Source: a virus
Lineage: Duplodnaviria; Heunggongvirae; Uroviricota; Caudoviricetes
Strand: one strand, 5' to 3'
IMG/VR virus record: IMGVR_UViG_2925897562_000001
Length of the DNA: 64,000 bases
Shown here one piece after another: positions 117-50,811 of the stretch (its first letter is position 1; each line of letters begins with the position of its first letter). A program made the translations under genes and the position numbers. A model generated the notes under the pieces. That model was given only the letters and a program-made list of their open reading frames with translations. It did no database searches and was not told the origin of the DNA.

Positions 117-698
117 ATGGCACCTATTCCTTATGGGGTTTACAGCCAGGCTGACGGTGTATCGCCATTTCTGAAAGTTACTTTAACGAACTCTCAGTAC
201 CAGGTTACCGGATATATCAGCCAGGGGGCGGCAATGAACATGGCCCAGAATTGGGAAGCGCCGTTTACCGGTATGTCCATGGGATCTGTTGCTGGTGCCT
301 TCAGTGGTTTTGCGCAGGTTGGTACTGAAACAACGTCGGTTGCCCGTTGGAACAGCTTAATGGTTTGGGAAGGGGGAACACCGCCGACTTTCACGCTGCC
401 AGTAACTTTCATCGCTTTGTTTGACCCATTCACGGAGGTTTCAGGAGCTATCGCCGCATTGTCAGCGATGATTAGCCCGGAACTTAAAGATGCCAGTATT
501 GGTGGTCGAATCCCGGAGCGCGTGACGCTAAACATTGGTCGCCGGATCAACATCATTGATGTCGCTATCCAGGACATAAGTTTCGATCTCGATGCGCCCA
601 GGGACAGCAATGGGCATTTCCTGAAAAACACCGTCAACCTCCAGTTGACCGGTTCTTCGATATATAACAGCTCCGATATTGTTCGGGCGTTCCAGTAA
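117..698 (+). CDS. hypothetical phage protein (193 aa)
   Basis: Intact ORF with GGAGG-type RBS upstream; no recognisable motif; convergent with repL. Confidence 0.5.
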   Translation: MAPIPYGVYSQADGVSPFLKVTLTNSQYQVTGYISQGAAMNMAQNWEAPFTGMSMGSVAGAFSGFAQVGTETTSVARWNSLMVWEGGTPPTFTLPVTFIALFDPFTEVSGAIAALSAMISPELKDASIGGRIPERVTLNIGRRINIIDVAIQDISFDLDAPRDSNGHFLKNTVNLQLTGSSIYNSSDIVRAFQ

Positions 699-709
699 AA
701 GGATTTTAT

Positions 710-1219
710 ATGGGGCACAATAACACTAAGGGAAACCGTAAATTTATTAAGGGCCGCTATACTGCCAACGCGGCCAAAGGCGAACGACTGGTATCTTCTG
801 AATTCCAGCTCACTTTTGCAGGCCATGAAGATATCAGCGTACTGGTTCGCACGTCGCAAATTCCTGAAATGACCCGCGAGGATGTGGAGGACTATGGTCC
901 GAATGGTGTGAAGTTCAACCAGCACGGACCAATTCGAAACTCTGGGGAAATCCAGGTCCAGTGCGTGGAGACTATCGAAGGCGATATTCTTCAGTTCATC
1001 AAGGATCGCATTGCGGCGAAGGACTATGTTGATATCACGATGGCTGCTACCCCTGAATCCAAATCTTCCGGGGTTAACGCTGTGACAAAAGCTGCTACAA
1101 CAATTGAAATGTTGGACTGCAAAATCTACAGTGATGCAATCGACTTTAGTACCGAAGATGTGACTGCCGCTGTGCGCCCGTCACTTCGTATCGTCTACAA
1201 CTGGATTGAGTGGGATTAA
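710..1219 (+). CDS. hypothetical phage protein (169 aa)
   Basis: Intact ORF 12 nt after previous gene, AAGGA RBS; followed by hairpin terminator. Confidence 0.5.
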   Translation: MGHNNTKGNRKFIKGRYTANAAKGERLVSSEFQLTFAGHEDISVLVRTSQIPEMTREDVEDYGPNGVKFNQHGPIRNSGEIQVQCVETIEGDILQFIKDRIAAKDYVDITMAATPESKSSGVNAVTKAATTIEMLDCKIYSDAIDFSTEDVTAAVRPSLRIVYNWIEWD

Positions 1220-1238
1220 GAGTCATCCCTTGTATTTT

Positions 1239-1264
1239 AAAGCTCCTTCGGGAGCTTTTTTATT
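1239..1264. terminator. rho-independent terminator (probably bidirectional)
   Basis: AAAGCTCC-TTCG-GGAGCTTT stem-loop followed by T-run, between convergent genes. Confidence 0.55.
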
Positions 1265-1335
1265 TGGAGAGGAAAGGGTGCATTGAGGATACCTGACACA
1301 CGAAGAGTGGCGAGGATCTCTCCCCGCCAGGTCTC

Positions 1336-1491
1336 TTACCTTTCAGATTCGTAGGCTGTGAAGACAGTGACCTCCGTCTGGCCGGTTCGGATTCGTACCT
1401 CGCAGAGGTCTTTCCTCGTTACCAGTGCCGTCACAATGACGGTTAAACAGATGACGATCAGAGCGATTAACATCGCTTTTTGCTGCTTCAT
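1336..1491 (-). CDS. hok: Hok/Gef-family membrane toxin (51 aa), type I toxin-antitoxin
   Basis: Hand translation gives MKQQKAMLIALIVICLTVIVTALVTRKDLCEVRIRTGQTEVTVFTAYESER; matches the Hok/Gef/RelF family signature (single TM helix, TRKxLCE, FxAYES); below the 60-aa ORF-track threshold. Confidence 0.8.
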   Translation of the reverse strand: MKQQKAMLIALIVICLTVIVTALVTRKDLCEVRIRTGQTEVTVFTAYESER

Positions 1492-3807: not shown

Positions 3808-4851
3808 TTAACCTATTGCTACTGGTTTTAACAAACCAGCATCAAGTAGCTTGCGAGTTAACCACTGCTGGCCTTTACCCGTTAATTGGGGCGTCAGCCG
3901 TATCTGGTAGCCATTTTCATCATCCAGCACCACTTCTTTCACCGTGAAATATCCGGCGTTGATGTACTGCTGGCGCGGTACGTTTTTGCGCGCACCAAAA
4001 GCCATGAGAATGCCGTTCTGGCGCAACCATGAGAAAAGGGCGTTTTGCTTAAGTCCAACGACCTTTGCAAAGTTCCCGATCAGGATTCCATTAGCCGCTG
4101 ATACCCGGTCGGCAAAATCGACTTTAGGGGCTGCGGCCACCAGCTGTTGTTCCAACTGCATTTTCTGTTCTGCCAACTCGGCAGCCAGGCGTAGAGCTTC
4201 TGGTAATGTTTGGGGGATCGATGGGGTAGGTGAGTTTGCCTGCTGCAATTCTTCCAGTTTGTCGATCAGCGAACGGCGGACCGCTTTCGATTCGCGCGCG
4301 GCGACTCGCAGGGCTTGTTTGTAGGTCATGGTTATGACAACCATAGGCGTACCGCCACCTGGCGGCACGGTTGCACTTTTTGTGTAACCGTCCTCACCTT
4401 CTAATTCGTCGAGTATTTTTTCGATGAATTTGTTGTTCCGAACCTCTGGTTCCCCACATAACTTACGCGCTTCATTGACCATCTTTAACAGTGTCAGGCT
4501 GTCGATTGTGTCTCCGGTGGTGGGGATGACATTCACGGCTGGTGCTGACGTTGCTGAAGCAACAGGTGCTGGTTTTTTAACATTCAAATTATTACTGGTC
4601 ATTCTATGTGCCTCCTTTCTCATTTCTGCTGCCACCGTTGCGTAACGTAGACGTCCTTGTTCAATCAAATAATCCCTGATCTCGGCTATCAGTAGCCTGT
4701 TGATCACAGCCTTATCTGTTCGGGTATAAAAACGCCTGGTTATCATGAAATAGTTGGCAATTGCGCCGGGGATCTCCCGTGTCGGCATACAGGCAGTATG
4801 CAGGGCGATCGCTTCGGCTATTTCATTACGGGTGACGAGAGGTTTTTTCAT
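3808..4851 (-). CDS. ant1: antirepressor Ant1 (347 aa; Ant2 from internal in-frame start)
   Basis: Start overlaps icd stop (coupling); C-terminal KilAC-like domain; immI gene order c4-icd-ant. Confidence 0.8.
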   Translation of the reverse strand: MKKPLVTRNEIAEAIALHTACMPTREIPGAIANYFMITRRFYTRTDKAVINRLLIAEIRDYLIEQGRLRYATVAAEMRKEAHRMTSNNLNVKKPAPVASATSAPAVNVIPTTGDTIDSLTLLKMVNEARKLCGEPEVRNNKFIEKILDELEGEDGYTKSATVPPGGGTPMVVITMTYKQALRVAARESKAVRRSLIDKLEELQQANSPTPSIPQTLPEALRLAAELAEQKMQLEQQLVAAAPKVDFADRVSAANGILIGNFAKVVGLKQNALFSWLRQNGILMAFGARKNVPRQQYINAGYFTVKEVVLDDENGYQIRLTPQLTGKGQQWLTRKLLDAGLLKPVAIG

Positions 4852-48818: not shown

Positions 48819-49130
48819 TTATTTCATCATGGAAGCGGTTAACGCTTTGGACCTTGCTGAACTGATTGAAAGGGCATTGTTTACCTTACCCAGGAGTTCG
48901 CCAAATTCCCCCATCACTCTAGTAAGCCCGCGCCGCGCTTCCTCCTCCGTTGCATTCATCACAAAATGTTCAGCACTCCGCATGCTTTTAACGGGGAACG
49001 CAACAGATATCGAGTCGATATCAGGCATCCTATCGCTCAACTTTACGGTGACAATGACAGATGGCGACAGAATATTAGTGCTTACAGACAGCACTACATA
49101 TTTTCCGTCGATGTTGAAATCCTTTCTCAT
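48819..49130 (-). CDS. Cra-like protein downstream of cre (103 aa)
   Basis: ORF following cre on the same strand. Confidence 0.35.
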   Translation of the reverse strand: MRKDFNIDGKYVVLSVSTNILSPSVIVTVKLSDRMPDIDSISVAFPVKSMRSAEHFVMNATEEEARRGLTRVMGEFGELLGKVNNALSISSARSKALTASMMK

Positions 49131-49180
49131 ATGCCACCATAAATATCAAAGAATTAGAGCAATCATTTACGCGTTAATGG

Positions 49181-50212
49181 CTAATTGCCATCTTCCAGCA
49201 GGCGCACCATTGCCCCTGTTTCACTATCCAGGTTACGGATATAGTTCATGACAATATTTACATTGGTCCAGCCACCAGCTTGCATGATCTCCGGTATTGA
49301 AACTCCAGCGCGGGCCATATCTCGCGCTGCTCCGACACGGGCACTGTGTCCAGACCAGGCCAGGTATCTCTGACCAGAGTCATCCTTAGCGCCGTAAATC
49401 AATCGATGAGTTGCTTCAAAAATCCCTTCCAGGGCGCGAGTTGATAGCTGGCTGGTGGCAGATGGCGCGGCAACACCATTTTTTCTGACCCGGCAAAACA
49501 GGTAGTTATTCGGATCATCAGCTACACCAGAGACAGAAATCCATCGCTCGACCAGTTTAGTTACCCCCAGGCTAAGTGCCTTCTCTACACCTGCGGTGCT
49601 AACCAGCGTTTTCGTTCTGCCAATATGGATTAACATTCTCCCACCGTCAGTACGTGAGATATCTTTAACCCTGATCCTGGCAATTTCTGCTATACGTAGC
49701 AGGGTATTATAAGCAATCCCAAGAAATGCCAGATTACGTATATCCTGGCAGCGATCGCTATTTTCCATGAGTGAACGAACCTGGTCGAAATCAGTGCGTT
49801 CGAACGCCAATGCCTGTTTTGCACGTTCACCGGCATCAACGTTTTCTTTTCGAATCCGCCGCATGACCAGTGAAACAGCATTGCTGTCACTTGGTCGTGG
49901 CAGCCCGGACCGACGATGAAGCATGTTTAGCTGGCCCAAATGTTGCTGGATAGTTTTTACTGCCAGACCGCGCGCCTGAAGATATAGAAGATAATCGCGA
50001 ACATCTTCAGGTTCTGCGGGAAACCATTTCCGGTTATTCAACTTGCACCATGCCGCCCACGACCGGCAAACGGACAGAAGCATTTTCCAGGTATGCTCAG
50101 AAAACGCCTGGCGATCCCTGAACATGTCCATCAGGTTCTTGCGAACCTCATCACTCGTTGCATCGACCGGTAATGCAGGCAAATTTTGGTGTACGGTCAG
50201 TAAATTGGACAT
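49181..50212 (-). CDS. cre: Cre tyrosine site-specific recombinase (343 aa)
   Basis: Essentially identical to canonical Cre (MSNLLTVHQNLPALPVD...); loxP 419 bp upstream. Confidence 0.97.
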   Translation of the reverse strand: MSNLLTVHQNLPALPVDATSDEVRKNLMDMFRDRQAFSEHTWKMLLSVCRSWAAWCKLNNRKWFPAEPEDVRDYLLYLQARGLAVKTIQQHLGQLNMLHRRSGLPRPSDSNAVSLVMRRIRKENVDAGERAKQALAFERTDFDQVRSLMENSDRCQDIRNLAFLGIAYNTLLRIAEIARIRVKDISRTDGGRMLIHIGRTKTLVSTAGVEKALSLGVTKLVERWISVSGVADDPNNYLFCRVRKNGVAAPSATSQLSTRALEGIFEATHRLIYGAKDDSGQRYLAWSGHSARVGAARDMARAGVSIPEIMQAGGWTNVNIVMNYIRNLDSETGAMVRLLEDGN

Positions 50213-50219
50213 TTAACAC

Positions 50220-50441
50220 TCAGATAATGGTTTTAAGTAAAGTGTACAGGATCGGCCCTGCCTTTACCTGTTTATGGTTCTCGTCATAGAAACGCCAGCG
50301 ACCGCGCGTGCGTTCTATTTTCTCTTCACCGCGCGATAATGACAGTTGGTAACTATCACGATCAAACCCTTTTGCCCGCCAGTAACCACGGTTTTTCTCA
50401 AGCTCAAGATGAGTGGACACTTTAGCAGCTGAATATCCCAT
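50220..50441 (-). CDS. small ORF (73 aa) in the loxP-cre interval
   Basis: Ends 8 nt before cre start; basic, no motif; may be non-coding promoter region. Confidence 0.25.
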   Translation of the reverse strand: MGYSAAKVSTHLELEKNRGYWRAKGFDRDSYQLSLSRGEEKIERTRGRWRFYDENHKQVKAGPILYTLLKTII

Positions 50442-50630
50442 TTTTCACCTCTGATTGATTGGTGGTGCTAAGTGCGCTACGCGAAATCTGGAGCACTAAC
50501 ACTGCCAACATTTCGCAGATTTTACGTAGCGCAACCTTGATCAAATGATCAAGTGATCACTATTTGACCTGATAAGGTATTGAACTGTATGGATTTACAG
50601 GTAAATTGATCATGTTCAATAACCCTTAAG

Positions 50631-50664
50631 ATAACTTCGTATAATGTATGCTATACGAAGTTAT
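50631..50664. other. loxP: loxP site
   Basis: Exact ATAACTTCGTATA-ATGTATGC-TATACGAAGTTAT. Confidence 0.97.
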
Positions 50665-50707
50665 TAGGTCCGAAGAGGAGTTTACGTCCAGCTGCGCATA
50701 AAAATCA

Positions 50708-50724
50708 AGAATTATTAGAGCAAT
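50708..50724. promoter_or_regulatory. C1 operator (Op99-type)
   Basis: AATTATTAGAGCAAT matches reverse operator consensus. Confidence 0.55.
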
Positions 50725-50784
50725 AAATTTTGAGAGAAAAATCCCACTCCACCAGCCAAAAACTGGATTGTTTTTCATAGTTGT

Positions 50785-50811
50785 TTGACAATTGCTCTAA
50801 TAAATTATAGT
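50785..50811 (+). promoter_or_regulatory. C1-repressed promoter for coi-c1 (TTGACA -35 overlapped by operator ATTGCTCTAATAAATTA)
   Basis: TTGACA at 50785-50790; operator 50791-50807 (16 of 17); TATAGT -10-like. Confidence 0.6.

Follow-up and report, generated by a model that had tools for sequence, protein, structure and literature searches.

The window analysed here is the whole stretch of 64,000 nucleotides in the IMG/VR record IMGVR_UViG_2925897562_000001, a virus of the Caudoviricetes. Along the strand that carries cre, a loxP site is followed by a 73-codon open reading frame and then by cre itself (Table 1). This order of loxP, cra and cre is the layout of the phage P1 record AF234172, in which cra lies at 207..428 and cre at 436..1467, and the P1 annotations can be transferred to the window without indels (window coordinate = 50648 minus P1 coordinate), with the hexamers present as annotated. 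The predicted product of the frame in the window is an 8.7 kDa protein with a pI of 9.85, containing 15 Lys and Arg residues versus 9 Asp and Glu residues. An earlier reading of the window, made from the sequence only, had pointed to an uninterrupted basic ORF of 73 aa lying close against cre, and the frame, its basic character (pI 9.85) and its coordinates were all confirmed. That reading had placed the end of the frame 8 nt before the cre ATG; the close spacing holds, but the spacer is 7 nt long and 8 is the difference between the coordinates.

Table 1. Positions of the genes, signals and sites of the loxP-cra-cre region in the window
Feature	Position	Strand	Description
cra	50220..50441	minus	73 codons + TGA; ATG-to-TGA ORF; 96% amino acid identity to P1 Cra AAQ13977
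cra-cre spacer	50213..50219	minus	GTGTTAA, 7 nt
cre	49181..50212	minus (cra strand)	343 aa; follows cra in the cra-cre unit
cra Shine-Dalgarno	50446..50451	minus	GAGGTG, 4 nt before ATG; anti-SD duplex -7.1 kcal/mol; putative rRNA binding site in X03453
P3cre (pR1)	50519..50544	minus	upstream of cra; AF234172 104-129; -35 TTGATC overlaps Dam site, -10 TAAAAT
P2cre (pR2)	50336..50365	minus	inside cra, codons 26-36; AF234172 283-312; TTGATC ... CATTAT
P1cre (pR3)	50224..50248	minus	in last cra codons; AF234172 400-424; TGTACA ... ATTAT
Dam (GATC) sites	starts 50539, 50547, 50555, 50608		cre regulatory region; = P7 37-40, 90-93, 98-101, 106-109
LexA box	50585..50600		= P7 LexA site 46-65
loxP	50631..50664		34 bp, perfect

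Identity of the gene upstream of cre

Judged from the sequence comparisons, the ORF upstream of cre is very probably the known phage P1 gene cra ('cre-associated'), a real coding gene under selection. The 1986 cre sequence (X03453) lists a 'pot. ORF1 (aa 1-73)', assigns it a putative ribosome-binding site and marks three promoters, pR1 upstream of ORF1 and pR2 and pR3 within it. The P1 record AF234172 annotates cra as 'putative cre associated function', together with Dam sites and a LexA box, and in P7 the gene is called upf0.2. In the P1 literature cra is placed between loxP and cre (PMC2409434), and its product has been named 'Putative Cre-associated regulatory protein' (PMC5786510). The sequence-only reading took the interval to be treated as non-coding DNA in which a small gene would be unexpected. 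This is contradicted by the annotation of the ORF in X03453, in AF234172/NC_005856 and in P7. Consequently, the finding is genuine but not new, the gene having been in GenBank as ORF1 since 1986 and having carried the name cra since 2004.

In a megablast search against phage records, the region was 97.6-99% identical at the DNA level to P1, P7, SJ46, phiW39, RCS47 and others. Among 5,426 complete E. coli genomes, 692 carried the same DNA, with very few exceptions on plasmids of ~90-100 kb. At the protein level Cra matched phrog_804, a family of unknown function, with an E value of 2.1e-33 (Cra residues 3-73 aligned to positions 1-72 of the 72-position profile). A search of the window for a second copy of the Cra family found none.

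The cra allele of the window encodes Y31 and G62, in contrast to the C31 and E62 of most copies. It occurs on 87 contigs, and the DNA of the E. coli plasmid pM121-2 is 100% identical to it (Y31, G62). Compared with cra of P1 or P7, the window carries 3-4 non-synonymous and no synonymous differences. A reading of these counts as positive or absent selection was dropped, the ratio in a sample of 77 sequences being 0.35 (see below).

The 73-aa protein is also found under the label 'creatininase', which is present at NCBI (RefSeq included) and in nr and UniRef, in records from E. coli, Salmonella, Klebsiella and Cronobacter. The enzyme creatininase (creatinine amidohydrolase) is several times the size of the 73-aa Cra and shares nothing with it beyond the gene symbol. 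Scans of Cra against Pfam and NCBIfam returned no match to any enzyme family and no hit above noise. A creatininase identity was ruled out on the length of 73 aa and on this result for Pfam and NCBIfam enzyme domains. The label is a misannotation, which probably arose from a mix-up with the gene symbol cra and was then widely propagated. One record with this label is that of H25/L182 (NZ_CP083587.1, 72503-72724).

A further observation concerns loxP itself. The record of Lactococcus phage Q33 (JX564242.1 / NC_049809.1) contains, at 17548-17583 and inside the annotated portal gene, a perfect 36-nt match that spans the 34-bp loxP. A loxP at this place is unexpected and could have arisen artificially during library construction or assembly.

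Coding evidence and constraint on cra

The length of the ORF, taken alone, is no more than weakly unusual. Of 20,000 shuffles of the 419-nt interval between loxP and cre, 2.3% had a complete ORF on the cre strand that started with ATG and spanned 73 codons or more. It is the comparative evidence that sets the ORF apart from chance. Homologues of Cra with 71 aa and 58-65% identity are encoded directly upstream of a 342-aa Cre homologue in Salmonella, Klebsiella and Cronobacter lineages. Between lineages the synonymous sites of cra are saturated (pS 0.62-0.81) compared with a pN of 0.22-0.28, and dN/dS, where it could be estimated, is 0.09-0.20. The differences are in excess at the third codon position (for example, 18/16/44 at positions one to three; chi-square P 1e-5 to 4e-4). 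Of the six frames, that of cra alone is free of stop codons in all four P1-like lineages, and 34 columns of Cra residues are invariant across these lineages.

We also examined a population sample of 80 IMG/VR loci picked on Cre alone, blind to cra, of which 79 had a cra interval that could be scored. No indel was present in 77 of the 79 copies, 75 of these starting with ATG and two with CTG, while the remaining two copies carried single-base frameshifts. Variants among the 77 sequences comprised 24 synonymous and 29-30 non-synonymous changes, giving a per-site N/S of 0.35 (binomial P = 2e-4); owing to relatedness among the IMG/VR copies, the variant counts are not fully independent. In the two shifted frames of the same 77-sequence alignment, N/S was 1.08 and 1.02. 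A single 'nonsense' variant among the 77 proved to be an artefact of splitting multi-base codon changes, and no sequence contains an internal stop. The comparison of conservation and synonymous sites across P1-like genomes, which the sequence-only reading had proposed as a check, thus yields purifying selection specific to the cra frame, both in the population sample and between lineages (dN/dS about 0.1-0.2).

Because the frame is under purifying selection, we take the ORF to be coding and reject the earlier suggestion that it may be fortuitous. That suggestion would have an open frame lying by chance in cre promoter and Dam-site DNA, with no coding function. In its favor, the 2.3% frequency in shuffles makes the length not striking, annotated promoters do sit in the region, disrupted cra alleles exist and the generic ORF list contains other frames of 60-66 aa nearby. 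However, the synonymous excess is frame-specific both within the P1 clade and between lineages, and no other frame stays open across the four lineages, in which synonymous sites have reached saturation. The Shine-Dalgarno sequence is conserved, homologues of 30-45% identity occur in unrelated contexts without cre or cre promoters, and pR2 is not retained in lineages that keep the protein. A chance frame is scarcely credible on this evidence, and the frame-specific selection tests suffice to refute it to a good standard.

Selection on cra is nevertheless weak, and much weaker than that on cre: N/S is 0.35 for cra versus 0.07 for cre and 0.23 for c8. Many damaged alleles of the E. coli clade are found in the large protein database. 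They include frameshifts (for example, the 41-aa products P0041-P0044), double shifts that restore the frame (P0017 and P0019), in-frame deletions (P0005-8, P0015 and P0033) and premature stops (P0011, P0013 and P0014). The commonest frameshift allele, P0042, is present on 115 contigs, and the two commonest intact alleles are each present on at least 1000 contigs. Stop codons or frameshifts in close relatives had been named by the sequence-only reading as evidence against a gene. The outcome is mixed in that disruptions do occur, but as a small minority only, and they indicate that cra is dispensable rather than non-coding. Taken together with the selection tests, the disrupted alleles therefore identify cra as a non-essential gene and not as non-coding DNA. 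Dispensability is evident from the circulating frameshift alleles and also from a published genome-wide CRISPRi study of P1, in which cra was non-essential for plaque formation, with an EOP of 0.66 (PMC10695390).

Most indel, frameshift and deletion alleles of cra are changed between codons 18-22 (RGYWR) and codons 46-50 (RGRWR), two runs that resemble each other; in the window this corresponds to about 50300-50390. Allele P0033 lacks exactly the stretch between the two runs and looks like the result of slippage between short direct repeats.

The damage could also mean that cra was functional in an ancestor and is functional in other lineages, but is drifting to a pseudogene in the E. coli P1 clade, where it would survive mainly as housing for the cre promoters. 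The 3-4 non-synonymous and zero synonymous differences between the window and P1 or P7 fit such a decay, as do the 26 distinct proteins encoded by the 77 copies, the many indel and frameshift alleles and the non-essential nature of the gene. In contrast, N/S in the larger sample is significantly below 1 and the deficit is frame-specific. Moreover, about 95% of the copies selected on Cre are full length, and intact alleles exceed the commonest frameshift allele at least 10-fold. We consider decay improbable and retain the view of cra as a weakly constrained but selected gene.

Translation signals and promoters of the cra-cre unit

Compared with 20-mers drawn at random from the window, the Shine-Dalgarno sequence of cra in the window has an anti-SD energy under the 5th percentile. 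A Shine-Dalgarno sequence, either GAGGTG or AGGAGG, precedes the cra start in every P1-like lineage examined and in several distant relatives, and its energy across lineages (-7.1 to -11.0 kcal/mol) does not exceed the 5th percentile for such 20-mers. This conservation speaks for expression of the protein. For cre, no usable Shine-Dalgarno sequence of its own was found in any lineage, the energies of -2.5 to +1.5 kcal/mol comparing with a random median of -2.3; the value for cre in the window, -2.5 kcal/mol, is near the median of random 20-mers. The distance from the cra stop to the cre start is exactly 7 nt in four lineages, although the spacers themselves (GTGTTAA, GCAGACA, CTAACTT and TTAAGCT) are unrelated. 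In the Salmonella, Klebsiella and Cronobacter loci L004, L008 and L012, this spacer is at 4217-4223.

Two IMG/VR P1-like contigs, L090 and L092, differ in that a 131-aa ORF (1109-1504) is situated between cra and cre. The stop codon of this ORF overlaps the cre ATG as ATGA (L090 1501-1504), and cra is still intact. The classification of these contigs as cre loci without cra was dropped, since an intact cra is present with the 131-aa ORF interposed. The N-terminus of Cre in both contigs is MTNSLTV, as in the D6-like lineages described below.

Translational coupling is suggested because cre lacks a Shine-Dalgarno sequence and starts within 7 nt of the stop codon of the preceding ORF. On long transcripts, synthesis of Cre would depend on ribosomes that terminate at the cra stop and reinitiate. 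Transcripts from pR3, whose annotated -10 ends 11 nt short of the ATG, would leave cre with almost no leader. Either way, Cre would stay at a low level, suited to a resolvase of plasmid dimers. We rate the chances of this arrangement, with termination-reinitiation on long transcripts and near-leaderless initiation on pR3 transcripts, as evenly balanced. Against coupling, the X03453 record gives cre a putative rRNA-binding site that spans the stop codon of cra. Given this site and the promoters inside cra, Cre can therefore be made without translation of cra.

An extreme form of coupling would make cra solely an upstream ORF that brings ribosomes to the SD-less cre, the peptide itself being irrelevant. 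The absence of a Shine-Dalgarno sequence before cre in every lineage, the invariant 7-nt spacing and the different ORF that abuts cre in L090 all speak for such a device. However, the amino acid sequence of Cra is conserved across the P1-like lineages, with the 34 invariant columns described above, family members exist away from any recombinase, cra remains intact even where it no longer abuts cre, and a compact fold is predicted with confidence. An irrelevant peptide is thus very improbable. A non-functional upstream ORF or leader peptide was likewise ruled out by the 34 invariant residues, the frame-specific N/S of 0.35 and the homologues found elsewhere. The reading of cra as a protein-coding gene that may also be coupled to cre is the one that we follow.

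The gene body of cra doubles as regulatory DNA, since P2cre and P1cre are inside it. P3cre, the pR1 of Sternberg 1986, lies upstream of cra, the first cistron of the unit, and would therefore give a bicistronic cra-cre transcript. These promoter positions rest on GenBank annotation; a generic scan of 49100-50800 for sigma-70 promoters and terminators found nothing, P3cre included. The -35 hexamer of pR3, TGTACA, falls in the cra codons for Leu-Tyr-Thr (CTGTACACT, 50240-50248) and is invariant in the four lineages, all three synonymous positions included. Its retention at synonymous sites, where saturation is otherwise the rule, is consistent with a dual constraint, and pR3 itself, not the protein, may account for some of the nucleotide conservation at the 3' end of cra. 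The pR2 hexamers (50360-50365 and 50336-50341), on the other hand, are specific to the P1 clade; they are present in the window and absent in the D6-like lineages even though the protein is kept there. The cre regulatory region (50539-50611) contains four GATC sites in the window, the same four in P7 and three in P1 c1.100.

The Cra family and its relation to Cre

Relatives of Cra were sought with several methods. A profile search of 1.84 billion representative proteins gave 16 hits, all but one of 22-85 aa (65-79 aa when full length). The exception was a weak match (E 1.4e-4) to a protein of 1499 aa. The same kind of search in a database of 5.8 billion proteins returned 127 proteins, and every one with a taxon name belonged to Enterobacterales or to a phage metagenome. 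A scan of viral contigs with the family alignment recovered only near-identical P1 copies. In these searches, then, the Cra family appears confined to phages and phage-plasmids of Enterobacterales. Its members have 65-81 aa and share the core motif ELEK..G[YF]WRAKGF ... R.D..I ... W ... L..LLK.I. Residues E13 and W49 are invariant in the family, and G19, R22, A23, K24, G25, F26, R37, I42, L65, L68 and L69 are nearly so. PADLOC gave no match for Cra of the window or for three distant relatives.

An AlphaFold (AF2) model built from 57 sequences had a pLDDT of 85.4 and a pTM of 0.67, compared with a pLDDT of 69.6 for a model built from 11 sequences. With good confidence, Cra is predicted to be an alpha+beta protein made up of two N-terminal helices (residues 5-16 and 18-24), a five-stranded antiparallel sheet (27-29, 34-37, 40-45, 48-52 and 58-62) and a C-terminal helix (65-71). 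A Foldseek search of the PDB with the first model (pLDDT 69.6) gave no match with E < 0.001, and a profile search of PDB sequences gave noise only. Matches in the BFVD structures were to uncharacterised phage proteins of similar size from Hafnia, Klebsiella, Erwinia, Enterobacter and Serratia, with TM values of 0.6-0.76.

Distant homologues of Cra, 30-45% identical, were found in surroundings that differ from the cre locus. No tyrosine recombinase was present within 3.5 kb in six such contexts. On contigs of ~110 kb, the genes for relatives of 70-72 aa come last in a small operon, overlapping at their start a phrog_2077 ORF of 111-112 aa, and run convergently to a Rep3-type replication gene. 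Relatives of 73 aa on contigs of ~90 kb have umuD/umuC-like genes as neighbors and a Rep3-like gene at a distance of 2-3 kb. Others are located among small ORFs adjoining RdgC- or Lar-like genes or, on a Salmonella contig of 157 kb, close to NAPRTase and VWA genes. A 356-aa ORF near one distant member had been equated with the 356-aa ORF that precedes cra in D6-like elements, but the two are unrelated and the equation was dropped. In Enterobacterales elements of ~110 kb (L173-L176, 3166-3719), the phrog_2077 ORF always precedes the Cra-family gene and the Rep3-type gene is about 350-490 nt away; the phrog_2077 ORF and the Cra-family gene could be a conserved two-gene module beside the replicon.

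Since the distant relatives occur without a recombinase, the association with cre belongs to the P1-like elements and not to the family. This argues for a function of Cra of its own and not for that of an obligate partner of Cre. Probably, though by no great margin of confidence, Cra acts alone as a small binding protein, with a nucleic acid or a host or phage protein as its partner, rather than as an obligate Cre cofactor. For the same reason, the label 'Cre-associated' fits only the P1-like elements, and the name 'Cre-associated regulatory protein' is unsupported; the label 'creatininase' is undercut even more.

A competing possibility is that Cra is an accessory factor or regulator specific to Cre, which would bind DNA adjacent to loxP, the cre promoters or Cre itself and so adjust recombination or the expression of cre. 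In keeping with such a role, cra is strictly syntenic with cre and linked to it as an operon in every P1-like lineage examined, and the protein is small and basic. Yet homologues exist with neither cre nor any tyrosine recombinase nearby, and frameshifted cra alleles persist on many P1-like plasmids. Cre-loxP recombination is not known to require an accessory protein, whether in vitro or in heterologous hosts, which also counts against this role. We consider a Cre-specific role unlikely. An Xis/RDF-like accessory factor of recombinases was ruled out, as Cra has neither the Xis-type winged-helix fold nor a family-wide pairing with a recombinase.

Only tentatively, and as something less than probable, we put forward a broader proposal that combines a function independent of Cre with the coupling described above. 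Cra would be the founding member of a family of small phage and phage-plasmid effectors that bind nucleic acid or host proteins, and in P1-like elements its gene would in addition form a translation gate on the SD-less cre. If this is true, a small upstream gene, which constructs routinely omit, determines how much Cre, a widely used recombinase, is natively produced. Little is added here to an ORF that has been in GenBank since 1986; what is firmer now is that it is coding, that it is dispensable and that its family is not tied to Cre. The position of an SD-less cre exactly 7 nt past the cra stop offers a modest and testable point on the low native levels of Cre.

Comparison with known systems places the gene of the window closest to Cra of P1, Upf0.2 of P7 and phrog_804, to which it is identical in position, strand, length and 7-nt spacing to cre. 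Protein identity to Cra of P1 and P7 is 95-96%, and the internal promoters, the Dam sites, the LexA box and loxP are shared; the differences from P1 Cra are allelic only. The D6-like elements of Salmonella, Klebsiella and Cronobacter (P0024, P0027 and P0028) share with the window the 7-nt spacing, the Shine-Dalgarno sequence and the TGA stop of cra. Their Cre homologue is 79-82% identical to Cre of the window and their Cra is 58-65% identical and two codons shorter (71 aa). In these elements cra is preceded by a 356-aa ORF (phrog_7674), which overlaps its start by 4 nt (ATGA), and the distance from lox to cra is about 1.5 kb versus about 190 nt in the window. In the P1-like plasmid-prophages of Klebsiella and Cronobacter (L008-L012, 2473-5252), the order is lox, a 68-aa ORF, the 356-aa phrog_7674 ORF of unknown function, cra and cre. 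The lox of L008-L012 matches a degenerate loxP pattern; the Salmonella loci L004-L007, which are otherwise similar, gave no match to this pattern. The distant members from other Enterobacterales phage-plasmids and phages (for example, P0061, P0089, P0110, P0071, P0052 and P0056) are of the same length class as Cra (70-79 aa), match the family profile with E values of 1e-22 to 1e-11, and keep the G[YF]WRAKGF core and the C-terminal L..LLK.I helix.
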